64,000 bases of DNA from NCBI GenBank assembly GCA_965217865.1, contig CBDCJO010000002.1:4160001-4224000 (forward strand), in the 5' to 3' direction. The notes under the pieces were generated by a model. It was not told where the DNA came from. It worked only from the letters and a program-made list of their open reading frames with translations, and ran no database searches. Every line of letters begins with the position of its first letter. Position 1 is the first letter of the stretch. This DNA is from Candidatus Latescibacterota bacterium (GTDB lineage Bacteria > Latescibacterota > UBA2968 > SICM01). Both the position numbers and the translations under genes were made by a program. Below are positions 35,749-44,993 of this stretch, piece after piece.

Positions 35749-37274
35749 CAGCCTGTTGAAAAAGTGCGTTTATGCCAAGATGACTGTTGTCTTTCCTTGT
35801 GGTTTGGTCCTATGATATATCAGGTTCAAACTGAGAAGGGAGGACGAGCAAATGGCAATGGGAAAACGAGGACGACAGAGACAGGAAAACCTGTTCATCG
35901 CATCGAACACTTTGGTGAAATCTCCGGGTCATCCGTTCTACGAGAAGCTGAATCAGGTATTGGGGGCGAACGGCTTCGACGAGTTCGTCGAGGGGCTTTG
36001 CCAGCGGTATTACGCTCCTCATATGGGTCGCAAGGGCATTCCGCCCGGGGTTTATTTTCGGATGCTTTTGATTGGGTATTTCGAGGGACTTGATTCGGAA
36101 CGTGGGATCGAATGGCGTGTATCTGACTCGCTGACGTTGCGCCGGTTTTTGGGGTATGCCCTTGACGAACAGACCCCGGATCATTCCAGCCTGTCTCGCA
36201 TCCGGCATCGGCTTCCCTTGGAAGTTCACGAAGCGGTTTTCAAGTGGATCCTGAGGGTCTTGTGCAAAGCGGGTCTGGTGAAGGGGAAGACGTTGGGCGT
36301 GGATGCTACGACACTGGAGGCCAACGCCGCGATGCGCAGCATTGTACGCCGTGACACGGGTGAAGGCTACCAGGCATTCCTTGAGAATCTGGCCAAGGCC
36401 TCGGGCATTGAAACGCCTACCCGCGAGGACTTGTCCAAGATCGATAAGAAGCGACCGAAGAAGGGATCGAACCAGGACTGGGAGCACCCGCACGACCCGG
36501 ATGCCAAGATCGCTAAGATGAAGGACGGTCGCACGCACATGGCGCACAAGGTGGAGCACGCGGTGGATCTGGACACCAATGCCATTGTGGCAGTGGCGTT
36601 GTCGGGAGCAGATGAAGGAGATACCGAGTCGTTGCCCTGGACGCTGCTCGAGGCGCCGCTCAATCTCAAGCAGGTCGCGAAGGACGAAAAAGCTGCCAAA
36701 CGTTTGCACAGACAGCGTATACGGGAGGTGGTTGCGGACAAAGGATATCATAGCAACGATGTATTGACCAGTCTGAAGCAAGGCGGCATCCGGAGTTACA
36801 TTTCAGAACCGGATCGGGGACGCCGCAAGTGGAACGGCCGACGAGATGAGCAGGCCGCGGTATATGCGAATCGACGCCGGATCAAGGGAGATCGCGGCAA
36901 GGCCTTGCGCCGAAGTCGTGCAGAACGGGTGGAAAGAACCATCGCTCACACATATGATACCGGTGGCATGCGCAGGTTGCACTTGAGAGACCGCGGCAAT
37001 ATCCTCAAGCGTTTGCTGATCCACATCGGGGGCTGCAACCTGGCTCTGCTCATGCGCAAAGTGATGGGCGTAGGTACTCCGAAGGCCCTCCAGGACCTGG
37101 CCAAGGCCTTGCAGCGTCTACTGCTCGTCCTACAATCACGTTTGCTGCCCTCGGTCACCTTTTTAACCTCTTATCAGCGTCTCCTGCTCAATCTCCTTAC
37201 CTTGATTTATCTGACCCGCACTCCAGGCGTCTTTTCCGTTTATGTGCGTTGAAAGGTAGTTCTTCAACGGGCTG
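35749..37274 (+). mobile_element. IS1182/IS5-like IS, copy 3 (transposase 35852-37252)
   Basis: 1526-bp core flanked by CTAG on both sides. Confidence 0.9.
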
Positions 37275-37504: not shown

Positions 37505-39071
37505 TGTATCTATTCTGAGATAACAAGAGAAAAGCAGATAAAGGTCCAAGCAAGATTCAGGCAGCCTTGTGGATGGTCTGGGATGTTCTTTGCCGATTGA
37601 TTTCTATGCGGCGCTGCCGAGCCTCCTCCTTTCGACCTTGTCGGTGGTGAAGAATCTTTTGATGCTGGCCTTTATGCCTCTGAAGAGGCGTGACATACTG
37701 TATTGCCCCGTGATAGCGTTCGGCGTTGTAGCTGTGAATGAAGGAATCAATCAGGCCTTCCAGTTGATGGAATGTGAAGATGTCCTGGAAGCGCAGCCAG
37801 TCGTATTTGAATGTCCGGAAAAAGGCTTCGATCCAGGCGTTGTCCGTGGGTGTTTGATATCGGGCAAACAGCTGCGAGATGCCCAGGTCCTTGAAGAATT
37901 GGGCCATCGATTTGGCCTTCATCTGAGATCCGTGATCTGAGAGGGCTGTCAAGCTTATGGGCCCAGTGTCCAGGTCCAGCAGTCCTTCGTTGGCAAGGGC
38001 TTGATCCCAGGCCTGTTTGACCTGCTCCACGGTCGCGTTGAAGGAGAGCTTCCATCCTACGATCTTCCTGGAATACACGTCGAGAATGGCGGTAAAATAC
38101 AGGAACAAACCGAAAAATGGGATGTAGGTCAGGTCCCAGCTCCAGACCTGATTAGGACCTTCAGGTTTGACCTGGGGCTTGCTCTGCTTGACCGGCGTCC
38201 TCACCTGTTTCCTGCGTGCCAGACGTTCTTTCCTGGCCTGTCGGTAGAAGCTGGAGGCCGAGGCCTGCACTACCCCCTTCTCTGAGGCTACCACCGCCAG
38301 CTGATGGGGAGGCAGATCGGCATAGGTCTCATCCCTTAAGAGGGCCGGGATTTGCTCTTTCTCCTCCCTCAGCAATCCGTGTGGGGCCTCATCAGGGGCG
38401 GGCCCGGGCTTCCCATCCAAAAGCGGGTCCGACACCCCATCCAGCTTCTCTTCTCGATCTCGCCGGCTCCAGGCACAATACCGCTGGAGGGGAAGCTGTA
38501 GGATCTCGCAAGAACGGGTGAGTTTCACCCCTTTCTCCTTGGCCCGATGGACCATTAAGAGGATCTCGCGTTTGACCTCAGCTTGCACCCGGTGGCCCTT
38601 GATCGGGCCTGTCAGATCCCATTCACACTTTTTTTTAGCAGGGAAAGTTCCACAGATTGCTCAATGATCGTTTGCTCCAGGCGTGCCCGCTCTTTGCGCA
38701 GCTGCTCCACCTCCTCAGCCGATACCATCGGCTTGCGGCTCCGGCGACCCTTGAACTCCTTGAGGGCCCCGGACTTGACCGACTCACGAATACGCTTTAG
38801 ATCCGAGGAATGAATGCCCCATTTCCGCAGCACCTGTGCAATGGGAACATCTCCCCGGCTGGCTTCAAGGAAAATCTCATACTTCTGTTCCGGGGACAAG
38901 CTCCTGCGCTTCTTGACCGGGTCACTGTTTGAGGACAGTTGCTCCATCTTTACTCCTCCTGTGAGGTCAGGGATATCCCAAAATATGTATCCCTTCTCAA
39001 CCCTACAGGCAACCAGGATCTTGCTTCGACCTTGCCCCCGTTTTTTCGGGCGATCTCAGACAAAAGATACC
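37505..39071 (-). mobile_element. IS3-family IS
   Basis: ~50-bp imperfect TIR (TGTATCTATTCTGAGAT...AAGGTCCAAGCAAGAT vs GGTATCTTTTGTCTGAGAT...AAGGTCGAAGCAAGAT); 3-4 bp target duplication (C)TGC. Confidence 0.85.
37557..38947 (-). CDS. IS3 transposase OrfA (38612-38947) / OrfB (37557-38588) joined by -1 frameshift
   Basis: HTH OrfA; rve motifs WSWDLTY, SDHGSQ, DNAWIEAF; A8G slippery run at 38628-38636 followed by hairpin GGCCC..GGGCC. Confidence 0.88.
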
Positions 39072-39881
39072 TGCGTGCTGCTTCCCAATCCATTTGAAAT
39101 GAGCATTCCCATCAAATTCGCCAACTTGACGTGAAGTTTCTCCAAGCCCTTCAAGTGTTTCTGAACTTTTTCGGCAAATTCCTGATTTGCCGAAAGTCGT
39201 TGGTTCTTGCCAGCCATGTTCATCAACTCCTTTCTCAATCGGTTCCTGGAAGTATGGAGCTGATTGTTAACTTTCGTCACGGCGATCTCCAGGAAGGAGG
39301 CTATTTCCTTCTGAGAGAGCTCGGCGATATAGAAGAGAATCACAACAGTAAGTTCAGGCTCTGAAAGTGCTTCGATTGCGGTCAGCACCTCTTCTTTTCG
39401 ATTCCTTTCATCCAGAAGCTCGTCTGGACTTTTTTGGTCCGAGGCCACATCCCGGGCCTCATCTAATTGTTCAGTTGGAACTTGCTTTCCCCGAGTGAGC
39501 CGATCACACTGAGTCAAGATCACTCTGCGAAACCACCCTGGAAATGCGGAAGGCACTTTCAGGTTGCGTAGATTTACGAAGGCACCAATAAACGCTTCCT
39601 GAGCAGCATCTTGTGCCAAATGCCAATCCCTGAGTTGCGAGAAAGCAAAGGCCACTGCCATGTCCTGGAACCGCCGAACAATTGTGTCAAAAGCGTCCAG
39701 ATCGCCATTTTGAGCCCGAACTACGACGGCATCTAGCTCTTCCATCTCCCATCCTATCTTATTAGAAGGCCTTCTACGTATAAAGACCCAACCTGGCGCC
39801 AATAGCTTTATAGAGAACTTTCTATCATCTAAAAAGGCCCATCGCCAGTGCCCTCTTACAGGGAATGTAAGTAATTGTGCT

Positions 39882-40676
39882 ATGGAAACAGAAGAGGTTT
39901 ACGAGCTTGCCGAGAAATTGGGGTGTGCGCAGGCAAGGATCGCTGACCGTTCGCCTTCGCCGGGAACTGTCGACACGTCCGTTCCTGGATTGCGGCTGAC
40001 GATTGTCCCGTCGCATGATACACCATATCCTTCGAGCAATCAAAACCGCGCACAGACTCTTCCTGGCGGAGTCGGCTGGCAGAAAGACTCCGCAGCAAAA
40101 TGCGTCGACCGCTACGTGGACGCGGGCGTGGAACGCTTTTTTGTATGGGTCAACGCGTGTCCTGATTGTGAGCGGATTGTACGTGATCTAAAGAGTGCGG
40201 GATTCAGGAGTTTTACAGGCGCCGGTTATCCAGTCTTGGCGCGCTCAGCCGACCGGATCCCGCAACCCGACACGTCATTCGTCGTCCGGCCCTTCAACCC
40301 TTCCCGGGATCGCAAGCGAATTGGTGACTACCCCGATTCAGAACGCCGTGAGGCCATCGTGCGTTCGCTTAAGCATGGCGACGAGCAGTATTTTATTGCT
40401 TGGGAGGGGAAGACCCCAGTTGCAACCGCTTCGGTAGTCGTGAACGGCCTGCTGGGCTATCTTTATGGCACTTTCACACTGGAGCCATATCGTGGCAGAG
40501 GAGCACAGACGGCCCTGATCGCAGCTCGCGTAAACTACGCAGTTGAACTAGGCTGCAAGTGGGTCGCCTCTGAGACGGTAAGTCGAGCCAAGACCTCCTT
40601 GGGGAATCTTAAGCGTCAGGGATTTCGCGTCATATACAAGAAACGAGTCTTCTCCTGGAAGGAGAAGCTCAAATAA
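39882..40676 (+). CDS. GNAT N-acetyltransferase (C-terminal domain)
   Basis: TLEPYRGRGAQTALIAAR...SLGNLKRQGF. Confidence 0.8.
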   Translation: METEEVYELAEKLGCAQARIADRSPSPGTVDTSVPGLRLTIVPSHDTPYPSSNQNRAQTLPGGVGWQKDSAAKCVDRYVDAGVERFFVWVNACPDCERIVRDLKSAGFRSFTGAGYPVLARSADRIPQPDTSFVVRPFNPSRDRKRIGDYPDSERREAIVRSLKHGDEQYFIAWEGKTPVATASVVVNGLLGYLYGTFTLEPYRGRGAQTALIAARVNYAVELGCKWVASETVSRAKTSLGNLKRQGFRVIYKKRVFSWKEKLK

Positions 40677-40761: not shown

Positions 40762-42198
40762 TCAATTTACCCTGGGAAAGAGCACGGCTCCCTGACGAAT
40801 CTCCGGTCCAGAAAATCTCTCCTTGATTTCTTGCCCGGTTCCGGGTAGAAATGGGGCCAGCCCCTCTCCCACCGATCTAATCGAATCCACCCACCTGGTC
40901 AGGTGCCCTCGAAGGGCGGAAATTCTACCTTCCTTAAGGAGGTCCCACGGTCTGACACTTTCTATTTGCCGGTTCAGATCTGTCACACCCCCTTGTAGGA
41001 TTTCCAAGCATTTGTGATACAGAAATCGATCCGCATAATACGCAACATCAGCGGGCGGATTTGAACCCCTGCCTGGCGTCACTTTGATTCTCGCCCTTTC
41101 ACATAGAGTTTCGAGGCGTCGGACGAGGTTGCCAATACCATTCGCCAGCTCGGACGAGTATACCTCCCGGAACCTGGTGAGCGAAAAGTCCCCATCCGCT
41201 CCGCTGGGGATCGCCCTCAGAAGGAAATAGCGGAGGGGGTCCGGTCCGTACTGGTCGATGATCGGGAAGGGATCGACCGCGTTGTGGCTGGATTTGCTGA
41301 TCTTTTCGCCGTCGACCGTAAGGAAACCGTGCACCACCAACTTATCGGGAAGAGGCAGCCCTGCGGACAGCAGCATCGCCGGCCAGTAGATTGCGTGGAA
41401 GCGAAGGATGTCCTTGCCGATCACGTGTATCTTGCAGGATTGGTCGTTCCAGAAACGCTCGAAGTCTTCGTCGTTTCGGCCAAAGCCGATTCCGGTAAGG
41501 TAGTTTGTCAAAGCATCAAACCAGACATAGAGCACCTGGGATGGGTCCCCCGGAACAGGGACTCCCCAGCCGCCGGACCTCTCGCAAGGCCTGGAAATGC
41601 TGAAATCCACCAGTCCCCGGCGAACGAACTCCAGGGCTTCGTTCTCTCTTGCTTGAGGAAATATCCGGAGCCGCCCGGATGATATCAGGTCTTCGAGTTC
41701 TCGCTGGTAGGCAGAGAGTCGGAAGAAGTAGTTCGTCTCTTCCACAACCTCAGGTTTGGTGGAGTGGATCGGACAACGGCCTTCATCCAGCTCCTCTTCT
41801 TCATAGAAGCCTTCGCAGCCTGCGCAATAGAGCCCCTTATAACGGTGGGGAAAAATGTCACCTTTTCGACAAAGTTCCCAGAATTTCGAAGCACCCAGAT
41901 GATGCGCCGTCAAGGATGTTCGGATGAAGTTGCCGTTTGAAATAAGCAACTCTGCGGACAACCTCTTGAACACGTCCGCGTTTCGATCACAGAGCGCTTG
42001 AGGCGTTAGGCCTGCTTGTTCAGCGGACCGAACGTTCTTCAGGGCATTCTCGTCCGTTCCGGTGAGCAAGAAGGTTTCATTCCCTCTTAGACTTTCCACT
42101 CTGGTAATCACGTCAGCCAGAACGAGTTCAAACGCAAATCCGACGTGGGGGTCCGCGTTTACGTAGGGAATGGATGTTGAGACAAAGGTGGTATTCAT
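40762..42198 (-). CDS. metG: Methionyl-tRNA synthetase, short form without C-terminal tRNA-binding domain
   Basis: IPYVNADPHVGF (HIGH variant), TGTDEN, CAGC..CPIH knuckle, YVWFDAL, GKDILRFH, KISKS. Confidence 0.92.
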   Translation of the reverse strand: MNTTFVSTSIPYVNADPHVGFAFELVLADVITRVESLRGNETFLLTGTDENALKNVRSAEQAGLTPQALCDRNADVFKRLSAELLISNGNFIRTSLTAHHLGASKFWELCRKGDIFPHRYKGLYCAGCEGFYEEEELDEGRCPIHSTKPEVVEETNYFFRLSAYQRELEDLISSGRLRIFPQARENEALEFVRRGLVDFSISRPCERSGGWGVPVPGDPSQVLYVWFDALTNYLTGIGFGRNDEDFERFWNDQSCKIHVIGKDILRFHAIYWPAMLLSAGLPLPDKLVVHGFLTVDGEKISKSSHNAVDPFPIIDQYGPDPLRYFLLRAIPSGADGDFSLTRFREVYSSELANGIGNLVRRLETLCERARIKVTPGRGSNPPADVAYYADRFLYHKCLEILQGGVTDLNRQIESVRPWDLLKEGRISALRGHLTRWVDSIRSVGEGLAPFLPGTGQEIKERFSGPEIRQGAVLFPRVN

Positions 42199-42325
42199 GG
42201 CACGTCCTTTCCTTATCGAATGCTTTATGAGAGGTGACCGATTTTGACGTGCGCATCCGTTCCAATCCGCCGTTGCTACCTGCCGAAAAGCACTTCATTT
42301 TGCCTCCAGTTTGCCCAAAGAGGGC

Positions 42326-42362
42326 AAAAGAAAAAGCCCGCTGCCAAATCCTGACAGCGGGC
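42326..42362 (-). terminator. Intrinsic terminator (attenuator 3:4 hairpin) upstream of metG
   Basis: GCCCGCTGTCA-GGATT-TGGCAGCGGGC followed by TTTTTCTTTT. Confidence 0.85.
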
Positions 42363-42387
42363 CCTTAGATCGATAGATTGAATCAGT

Positions 42388-42528
42388 TTATGTTCTATAG
42401 TCCAGAGGGTATTCCACTGCCGCGGAAACTCTATCTCGCATAGACATACCCATGCCATTCCGGACAGTGGAGGTGCTTTGCCAATCTTGACAAACTGATT
42501 GAAAACCAAACGTGGCCTTGATTGCCAT
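42388..42528 (-). CDS. Putative 46-aa metG leader peptide with MGMSM control codons
   Basis: AAGGAG RBS; MAIKATFGFQSVCQDWQSTSTVRNGMGMSMRDRVSAAVEYPLDYRT*; stop 25 nt before the terminator. Confidence 0.7.
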   Translation of the reverse strand: MAIKATFGFQSVCQDWQSTSTVRNGMGMSMRDRVSAAVEYPLDYRT

Positions 42529-42554
42529 GAAATTCTCCTTTTGCAGCATAAATA

Positions 42555-42583
42555 AATCTACCTTAATACCGATCCTCTGTCAA
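42555..42583 (-). promoter_or_regulatory. sigma70 promoter of the leader-metG unit
   Basis: TTGACA-17 bp-TAGATT. Confidence 0.75.
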
Positions 42584-42757: not shown

Positions 42758-43696
42758 ATGAAGGTTGATGAGATCAAGCGAATAGCCGTTGTCGGTGCCG
42801 GCTTGATGGGCCACGGGATCGCCCAGGAATTTTCCCTCGCCGGTTATGAAGTCCACCTGCAATCTCGTACCGAAGAGAGTCTGCAAAAAGCCATCTTGGA
42901 TATTCAGAAAAACCTCGAGTTCCTAACGGGGCTTGGACAGGTGACCCCTGAGCAGGCCGAGCCCGTTCCGGCCAGGATCCATACCACTACGGAGTTCGAA
43001 CAGGCGGTCGAAGACGCCGATGTGGTCATCGAGTCCGTCTTCGAGGATCTTGCGCTCAAGCAAAAGATCTTTCAGGACCTTGACAAAGTGTGCCCGGAAC
43101 GCACGATCCTGGCGAGCAACACCTCCAGCTTGATGCCGAGTGCGTTCGCGTCCGGCACCCGCAGGCCTGAAAAGGTGCTCGTGGCACACTACGCCAACCC
43201 GCCTTATTTAATCCCGGTCGTCGAAATCGTCCCGAGTGGGGAGACATCCGACGAAACCGTGACGACCATATCTGATCTCCTCACAAAGATGGGAAAGCGC
43301 CCCGTCATCGTACAAAAAGAAGTCCCGGGTTTCGTCCTCAATCGCCTTCAGGGAGCGCTTCTTCGGGAGGCGCTTTGGCTTGTAGAAAACGGCATTGCGA
43401 GTCCACAGGATGTGGATATCGCCATAAAGAACGGCATCGGACGACGATGGGCGGCGGCCGGAATCTTCGAGGTGTTTGAGATCGCAGGATGGGATTTATT
43501 GATGGCGATGGCTTCAGGCCTTCTCCCCCATCTTGCATCTTCGCCGGAAGTACCTTTGGTGCTGAAAGAGAAAGTCGAACGCGGCGAACTCGGGGTAAAG
43601 ACCGGGAAGGGGTTCTATGAGTGGACTCCGGAGTCGGCCGAGGCCCTGAAACAAAGAATTGCGGAAGCCCTGGTCAAAATAGAGCGGTGGTCCTGA
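42758..43696 (+). CDS. 3-hydroxyacyl-CoA dehydrogenase family
   Basis: GAGLMGHGIA, ASNTSS, HYANPP, LGVKTGKGFY. Confidence 0.92.
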   Translation: MKVDEIKRIAVVGAGLMGHGIAQEFSLAGYEVHLQSRTEESLQKAILDIQKNLEFLTGLGQVTPEQAEPVPARIHTTTEFEQAVEDADVVIESVFEDLALKQKIFQDLDKVCPERTILASNTSSLMPSAFASGTRRPEKVLVAHYANPPYLIPVVEIVPSGETSDETVTTISDLLTKMGKRPVIVQKEVPGFVLNRLQGALLREALWLVENGIASPQDVDIAIKNGIGRRWAAAGIFEVFEIAGWDLLMAMASGLLPHLASSPEVPLVLKEKVERGELGVKTGKGFYEWTPESAEALKQRIAEALVKIERWS

Positions 43697-43812
43697 ACAT
43701 CCTAGTTTCGGTCGGTTCGCAAAACCTGAGAACGTCAAGGCAAGTTCTGCTTTGATCACGAAAAGCCGGCACTGTCCTGGCCCCGCAAGTGAAGGCTCTT
43801 GGAGGATTGTTG

Positions 43813-44993
43813 ATGTCGAAGACCTCAACCAGAAAAGCGAAGTTCATCTCTGAATTGAGAAAACAATTCGTTGATATGCTTTATGCCACCCAGGCCCTTA
43901 AAACAAAAGAAGTCGAAGCAGCCTTGCGATTTGTCCCGAGACACCTATTCGTTGATCGATTCTATGATTTTCAGAAGAAGAAACAATATCGTATAAAAGT
44001 GGATCCTGAAAACCCTACACCTGCACAATTGAAAAAGATATACTGTGACGATGCCCTGGTATCTCACCTGAGTCCGCACCCAACCAGTTCCACATCCCAG
44101 CCCAGTCTTGTTGCTCAGATGCTGGAGGAACTTCAGCTCAAGCCTGGTATGAAGGTTCTCGAAATTGGTGCCGGAACAGGTTGGAATGCTGCTTTGATGG
44201 GACATATTGTTGGTTCCAACGGCCACGTATGCACTATCGATATACAAACGGATGTTGCTCGAGGCGCCCGTCAGAAAATTCGTCGCTTTGACGCTAAGAA
44301 TGTGACGATTATTACTGCCGACGGTTGGAACGGATATCGAAAAGGAGCTCCTTACGACAGAATCATTACGACGGTAAGCTGTCCGGACGTTTCTCCTCAC
44401 TGGACCAGTTGAAGGGAGATGGGGCACTGTTGATAACGCTTCAGGACATACCGGGGGCATGTGATTGTCTTATGCCATTCTTGTGGAAAAAGAAAGATCA
44501 TCTGGAAGGTGAAGTGGTTGGATCGCCTGGATTTATGGTATTGCAGGGAAAGTATGGGATGGAGGTCGTGTTACCTGATGTGGCGAAGGAACGATTGACT
44601 CGTGCAAGAGCCGACAGAAAAGCGCATAAGAAGACAGCACCGTGGATTTGCTGGAATCCAGGCATACGCAGATGGACGGCGCTAGAGCTATTGTTTTTTA
44701 CCACTCTGGAAGGGATGTTCGTTGAGCCTGCATTAAGCCATTGTATTCTTTCCTACAAAGATTCGGAGAGTATCTGTATCACTGATACAGGTGAGGAACA
44801 CATTGAAGTGTATGGCGGCGAAGAAACCTATCGGGCTTTTGAGGATGTGGCTCGAAAATGGATCGAATTAGGGGCTCCGCGAAGAATCGCATACCGTATG
44901 GAAGTTTGGCCGAAGCAGGCTAAGAAGCGTAAACCAAAGAACGGCTGGTTGATGCAGCGTGTTCATTCACAGTTGATTTTTCGATTGAAATAA
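43813..44993 (+). pseudogene. Protein-L-isoaspartate O-methyltransferase-like with long C-terminal extension; frameshift at ~44405
   Basis: VPRHLF, SSTSQPSLVAQML, LEIGAGTGWNAAL, APYDRII; continues as DQLKGDG in the next frame. Confidence 0.8.

Follow-up and report, generated by a model that had tools for sequence, protein, structure and literature searches.

A probable methionine-codon leader-peptide attenuator upstream of an accessory metG

A leader on the minus strand of the window (the whole stretch of 64,000 nucleotides analysed here) is very likely a ribosome-driven transcription attenuator that senses charged elongator tRNA-Met, placed upstream of a Met-poor extra copy of metG. It is a new specificity, methionine, of the known leader-peptide attenuation mechanism. 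The leader is real and conserved, and very probably functional.

The leader begins with a sigma70-type promoter (42555..42583, minus strand) that matches the consensus at 10 of 12 positions and consists of TTGACA (42583-42578), a 17-nt spacer and TAGATT (42560-42555). A Shine-Dalgarno (SD) sequence, AAGGAG (42535..42540), with a calculated anti-SD duplex of −7.1 kcal/mol, precedes a 46-codon leader ORF (42388..42528) for which homologous leaders exist. This ORF contains the regulatory codon cluster Met26-Gly-Met28-Ser-Met30 (42439..42453), with Met codons at 42453, 42447, and 42441. Four segments of the same strand can pair alternately. Segment 1 (42463..42470) provides the 5′ arm of a 1:2 protector helix, and segment 2 (42414..42421), located 20 nt past the last Met codon, is the partner of either segment 1 or segment 3. 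Segment 3 (42353..42360) takes part in the antiterminator 2:3 or serves as the 5′ arm of the intrinsic terminator 3:4 (42326..42362), which is completed by segment 4 (42345-42338) and a U-tract (42335-42326). The U-tract ends 128 nt ahead of the metG ATG (42198), and the distance between the leader stop and the metG start is 189 nt. The preliminary description had named this promoter, ribosome-binding site, ORF, Met triplet, set of four segments, and terminator, the last at about 130 nt from metG, and we recovered all of them on the minus strand as it gave them. Its position for segment 1 also holds, but segment 1 does not lie just before the Met codons as it stated: 9 nt separate it from the first one, and the 1:2 helix runs on through the codons themselves.

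Scans for promoters and terminators do not by themselves rise above chance (2 found against 0.9 and 1.8 expected). The combination of parts is distinctive: the genome contains 53 units made of an SD, an upstream ORF (uORF), and a terminator, and the window leader is the sole unit with three Met codons within six codons. A promoter-like match of 9/12 lies antisense over the terminator (42351-42379, plus strand) and is within chance expectation.

The leader folds with a z-score of −3.78, a stability equalled by none of 200 shuffles. The 2:3 duplex was likewise matched by 0/200 shuffles (p 0.005), and the 1:2 duplex gave p = 0.015; the helix energies are −28.7 kcal/mol for 1:2, −21.8 for 2:3, and −22.9 for 3:4. 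Alternative folds are predicted by a ribosome model in which the probability of 2:3 pairing, P(2:3), is computed on a transcript ending before segment 4. Under these constraints, the antiterminator is predicted to form with a ribosome at Met26 (P = 0.99 with this codon in the A site) or Met28 (0.86), and neither in the absence of a ribosome (0.00) nor with a ribosome anywhere from codon 35 through the stop (0.00). For a ribosome at Met30, P(2:3) is 0.00 if the 1:2 helix is allowed to form around it and ~0.8 in a model without such closure. The modelled antitermination window is broad, covering codons 17–28 and 32–33, with Met30 outside when 1:2 can close. At equilibrium on the full transcript 3:4 wins in every case, so read-through has to arise kinetically, as it does in known attenuators (PMC1183508).

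We infer that the leader is translated and that stalling within it induces metG. With ample Met-tRNA, the ribosome would reach the stop codon, segment 2 would be covered or re-paired with segment 1, and 3:4 would terminate transcription 128 nt ahead of metG. When Met-tRNA is scarce, the ribosome would pause at Met26 or Met28 and cover segment 1; with segment 4 not yet transcribed, segment 2 would capture segment 3, letting RNA polymerase read through into metG. Leader initiation itself needs Met-tRNA, which could blunt the response. A reduced version of the ribosome-walk, applied to 51 leaders, placed Met codons in the modelled window barely more often than expected in three groups of homologues (45/67 against 39.4, 35/49 against 28.7, and 66/66 against 55.0), and it discriminates poorly because the windows are broad.

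Met-rich leaders recur in front of homologous metG genes. We collected 248 metG loci, dropped 12 duplicate or broken rows and one locus without a usable match, and grouped the remaining 235 on a tree; an unpublished genome (G121) enters no claim apart from a tally made for this collection. At each locus, the best terminator within 520 nt of metG was taken, followed by the upstream ORF with the best SD, ignoring Met content; the group borders were set on the tree with the leaders visible and are thus not blind. The window's clade, clade A, forms one side of a branch with 99* SH-aLRT on a quick tree. A terminator and uORF are present at 24 of its 28 loci, and all 24 uORFs contain at least two internal Met, a total of 77 Met against 13 expected from base composition (the next residue reaches 1.5x), although 14 of the 24 leaders come from one genus, so that these counts overstate independence. 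Two further groups, both mostly Ktedonobacteria, behave in the same way: 21/28 uORFs with at least two Met in one (39 loci; 73 Met against 8 expected) and 15/15 in the other (18 loci; 74 against 9). Among housekeeping metG controls, only 2/12 uORFs have two or more (30 loci; 9 Met against 5 expected). The value is 1/15 in a mostly Patescibacteria 'other' group (120 loci; 10 Met against 7), for which the scan covered the region directly before metG and would miss leaders at operon heads. In 19/24 clade-A leaders, a promoter match of at least 9/12 is situated 22–36 nt before the leader start.

Latescibacterota, Chloroflexota, Armatimonadota, Aegiribacteria, and Pseudomonadales all have Met clusters, embedded in unrelated sequence. 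Plasmids have them as well: Met-run leaders are present at all four loci retrieved, out of 10 hits, and these loci come from cultured Rhizobium, Sinorhizobium, Streptomyces, and Embleya. The Rhizobium leader has only 15 codons and gives a clean switch in the model, with P(2:3) of 0.04 when free, 0.9–1.0 with a ribosome at its three Met codons, and 0.0 at the stop; the modelled switch is less clean for the other three plasmid leaders.

All rival explanations of the leader, taken together, are unlikely. The one that survives best, itself very improbable, is a ribosome-dependent attenuator that senses general or drug-induced stalling through peptide arrest, with the Met codons incidental. The breadth of the modelled antitermination window would accommodate it, as would a Ktedonobacteria leader group (L197-L217, L118) that keeps the peptide M-x-M-R-x-R-G-L-P-R, which is reminiscent of arrest motifs and could be either RNA-driven or an arrest motif. 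Against it, Met is the sole strongly enriched residue (5.9–9.4x), and the rest of the peptide varies freely between leader groups. A terminator scaffold on which the codons are exchanged in line with the downstream gene likewise argues for codons, rather than a peptide, as the sensed feature.

This scaffold, CCCRCYGYC...GRCRGYGGG followed by a U-tract, is found across the class (L269-L278, L289-L328). A covariance model built from 18 leaders was run on 132 genomes of the class, and 52 of the elements found were examined, along with three in the window's own genome; some of the linked genes were named by likeness to scanned ones. Scaffold leaders upstream of ileS are rich in Ile, those of leuS and leuA in Leu, those of hisI operons in His, those of ilvB in Val/Leu, those of asd in Thr/Lys/Asp/Asn, and those of aspS-type genes in Asn/Asp; trpS leaders carry Trp-Trp-Trp. 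Before thrS, scaffold leaders are Thr-rich at 4/4 archaeal-type genes (three of these also with His and Met) and at 4/7 bacterial-type genes, a Thr-rich leader being absent at the other 3/7. Other hits among the 52 are plain terminators without a matching leader. Codon identity thus tracks the downstream gene on a common chassis, which is the strongest indirect evidence that the codons are the sensor.

Slightly less probable than general stalling is control of the 2:3 versus 3:4 choice by a small-molecule riboswitch, a T-box-like RNA, or an RNA-binding protein, with the ORF as a by-product. Met genes are usually under S-box or T-box control (PMC1262725), and an undescribed riboswitch would escape Rfam. 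However, the window has no Rfam hit at the gathering threshold, and the leader overlaps neither a T-box nor a SAM riboswitch. Relaxing the threshold to E ≤ 1 at eight loci yielded 11 sub-threshold matches of hairpin, miRNA, and sRNA type, with no riboswitch or leader among them and none at the window locus. The window's own genome, which is 96% complete, returned no match to the T-box model (RF00230) and none to SAM-I (RF00162; 150 of 542 candidates scored). Moreover, what is kept across leaders is the SD, the start, the frame, and the spacing from Met to stop, while the sequence is not.

Less probable again is a leader without Met sensing, in which the AUGs are alternative or re-initiation starts, or in which the ORF is a translation antenna in front of a constitutively leaky terminator. 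Clusters of AUG are able to serve as starts, and leader genes that work through re-initiation have been proposed (PMC4833913). Yet a conserved, covarying terminator and an antiterminator intervene between the leader stop and metG, and the spacing between the AUG cluster and segment 2 is constant. Across an alignment of 18 leaders, 162/162 terminator cells are paired, and three of the nine terminator pairs show compensatory change, a covariation reached by 0/500 shuffles; slid controls are at most 56% paired. Segments 1–4 change in step between two subfamilies; the pairing of segments 1 and 2 is partly by construction, as the two were selected for best complementarity. Among the 18 leaders of the Latescibacterota class, segment 2 falls at +20 to +29 nt after the last Met in 16 and the stop lies 48–51 nt past the last Met in 15. 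The duplex test is more variable: 2:3 beats shuffles in 12/24 clade-A leaders and in 1/21 and 2/15 of the other groups, B and C, and 1:2 does so in 7/24, 0/21, and 0/15, respectively. Antiterminators of the Chloroflexota groups are thus mostly not above chance in this test; for 2:3 in groups B and C, the low pass rate may reflect a segment-3 window that clipped loop bases.

Alongside the proposed Met-sensing attenuator, a second short ORF, absent from the preliminary description, lies between the terminator and metG and runs out of frame across the metG start. The module (42128..42307, minus strand) comprises an SD, GGAGG (42307-42303), and an ORF from an ATG at 42298 to 42128 that carries Met15 at 42256. 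A helix of GCACGTC (42252-42246) with GACGTGC (42206-42200), spanning 42200..42252 on the same strand, adjoins the metG SD and start. Six homologues keep this second ORF, with M-R/C-x-S exactly 73 nt ahead of the metG start, and in these a helix whose 5′ arm starts at the Met codon occludes the metG SD and AUG (0–3 of 300 shuffles are as good). A ribosome placed on the Met codon is predicted to cut the opening cost from 13.5–21.4 to 6.4–10.8 kcal/mol. In several relatives, according to these models, the second ORF would add translational control at the metG ribosome site. The window helix is weak (33/300 shuffles as good), and a ribosome makes no difference to it (opening cost 4.2 versus 5.4), so the second layer has probably decayed here; at locus L001, the second ORF has lost its Met. 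The second module would act in the manner of cat/erm translational attenuators, where stalling of a ribosome within a uORF unmasks an SD. It differs in that its stall site is a Met codon (M-R/C-x-S) rather than a drug-dependent arrest, and in being weak in the window's own genome.

The gene behind the leader (40762..42198, minus strand) encodes a 478-residue single-knuckle MetRS, similar to type 1 as defined in PMC8165550, with motifs HVGF, DENALKNV, and KISKS and no C-terminal appendix. The preliminary description called it accessory, and rightly, as a 647-aa housekeeping metG is found elsewhere in the genome, without a terminator in its upstream region. A second MetRS is also present in 6/6 class relatives carrying the accessory gene and in 5/5 distant genomes checked. 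Accessory enzymes share HVGF and DEN[AS][LF]KNV, whereas housekeeping copies mostly have HIGH and DEHGxK; the corresponding stretch lines the auxiliary pocket of the S. aureus enzyme (PMC9071491). The accessory MetRS contains a single internal Met. Within the first 500 residues, the median is 1 internal Met for accessory enzymes (n=20) and 10 for housekeeping ones (n=29), and just 4 of the genome's 717 mechanical ORFs of comparable length are equally Met-poor. Met poverty would suit a protein needed when Met-tRNA is scarce, but part of it is a clade trait, because Met content is also fairly low in many Patescibacteria relatives that have no leader.

The closest relatives found for the accessory MetRS are from Candidatus Latescibacterota (77%). 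Its distribution is patchy, with 32 of 168 genomes of the phylum passing a strict cut-off that admits some housekeeping copies too. The gene is frameshifted or has an internal stop at L086 (G028), L087 (G040), and L241 (G234), and thus appears dispensable. The neighbourhood of metG in the window, which is not conserved among homologue loci, includes an ECF sigma factor (39056-39802, minus strand), a GNAT-like protein (39882-40676, plus strand), a divergent 3-hydroxyacyl-CoA dehydrogenase (42758-43696, plus strand), and a PIMT-like methyltransferase that seems to be divided between two frames (43789-44993, plus strand). Two sets of ORFs named transposase-like by resemblance (35852-37252, plus strand; 37557-38947, minus strand) lie ~2–5 kb downstream of metG and are consistent with a mobile region.

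A chance or dead arrangement, for which the broken homologues in G028, G040, and G234 and the decayed second module might speak, is scarcely credible given that the arrangement is conserved across phyla, that its terminator covaries, and that a strain variant (run X6) shows no difference in 42326-42583 against 18 listed substitutions and four gap sites immediately upstream, an invariance that a recombination boundary could also explain.

Regarding the natural trigger of the Met-codon attenuator, Met shortage and MetRS inhibition both lower Met-tRNA. Shortage is favoured by the Met poverty of the enzyme. An inhibitor is suggested only by the changed auxiliary-pocket motif, a motif that may be linked to MetRS inhibitor resistance selected in the laboratory, and by analogy to the auxiliary indolmycin-resistant TrpRS1 of Streptomyces, which is said to be under ribosome-mediated attenuation. 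The indolmycin resistance of TrpRS1 is noted in PMC9437257. By this analogy, the accessory metG would likewise be a second synthetase copy to be switched on by stalling at cognate codons; unlike for TrpRS1, an inhibitor role is only suggested, by the altered motif.

The classical attenuators trpL, hisL, thrL, leuL, ilvL, and pheL, as presented in PMC1183508, have the same promoter, cognate-codon ORF, 1:2, 2:3, and 3:4 pairings, and terminator. The Met leaders share with them a leader ORF, conserved cognate codons, a covarying 3:4 stem, and mutually exclusive 2:3 and 1:2 duplexes, these last mostly not passing in groups B and C. The window leader departs from the classical examples in using AUG as the regulatory codon, in its length of 46 codons, and in having an extra synthetase as target; in addition, segment 1 sits close on the 5′ side of the codons, which are themselves part of the protector helix. 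The pheST and trpS/leuS attenuators (PMC1262725) and the cysS motif (PMC8632094) likewise place a synthetase gene under the supply of its own charged tRNA, and differ from the present case in that ours has Met specificity, controls an accessory rather than a sole copy, and is joined by a tandem translational layer in some relatives. T-box and SAM (S-box) riboswitches of met genes and metS share the aim of sensing Met or Met-tRNA and the terminator/antiterminator output, whereas the window leader has no Rfam match and its sensing would go through the ribosome.

The preliminary description knew of no characterised Met leader-peptide attenuator. Our full-text literature searches, on Met attenuators and on metG regulation, also found none, although this does not establish absence from print. 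For methionine operons of Actinobacteria, PMC1262725 reports no conserved RNA element upstream and names S-boxes for Met. The uORFC-8-2 motif of cysS is described in PMC8632094, where the main text leaves methionine unmentioned.

Attenuation by methionine faces a logical obstacle, as the start of the leader also consumes Met-tRNA, and a natural design found so widely would reveal how ribosomes tell elongator supply apart from initiator supply. The short versions in cultured Rhizobium and Streptomyces make Met attenuation directly testable, and such leaders would yield a genetically encoded reporter of Met-tRNA or of MetRS inhibitors. The regulated enzyme marks out a little-explored MetRS clade suited to low Met, and the common scaffold points to one attenuator chassis that a phylum with few studies to its name has adapted to many amino acids. 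A wider reading, which we consider doubtful as a whole though worth stating, is that many phyla share a mobile, nearly Met-free back-up MetRS with a remodelled auxiliary pocket, governed by one or two Met-codon sensors (transcriptional, then translational) and induced as protection against a natural MetRS inhibitor yet to be discovered and against Met starvation. In Latescibacterota, the same reading would place it in an attenuator kit that spans the class; the leader codons of this kit could be read to assign functions to unknown genes, such as a MetRS-like protein behind a Gln run.

That protein is a third, divergent MetRS-like gene of 676 aa in the same genome (G000:C2:4570487-4568457, minus strand; L329), which scores below all MetRS cut-offs. 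It lies behind the same scaffold, with a terminator at 4570563 and a leader containing the Gln run QFQQQQVQ. Gln-run leaders precede 2/4 MetRS-like homologues (L329 and L332, the latter with QQQ), and two Clostridia homologues of the L329 gene are situated one to two genes after gltX-type genes in the same direction. The L329 protein may serve Gln-tRNA formation rather than Met.

Mixed His/Met/Thr leaders were seen at L267/L003 (G202), L276/L002 (G056), L266, L085, L241, and L242, the last two as two leader-terminator units in tandem. L002 and L003 belong to clade A and have no nearby terminator; instead, a leader at the operon head mixes His and Thr with one Met in L002 and two in L003. In G202, the mixed leader heads an operon of hisG and an accessory-type metG, and in G056 it heads a ThrRS-like gene and an accessory-type metG. 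Elsewhere in the window's own genome, a non-discriminating aspartate-tRNA(Asn) ligase (G000:C2:4543350-4545118, plus strand; L340) follows two tandem Asn-rich leader/terminator units, and a scaffold terminator (G000:C2:4925068-4925118, plus strand) with a 25–49-codon leader of no clear codon bias precedes an ORF that is acetyltransferase-like by resemblance.
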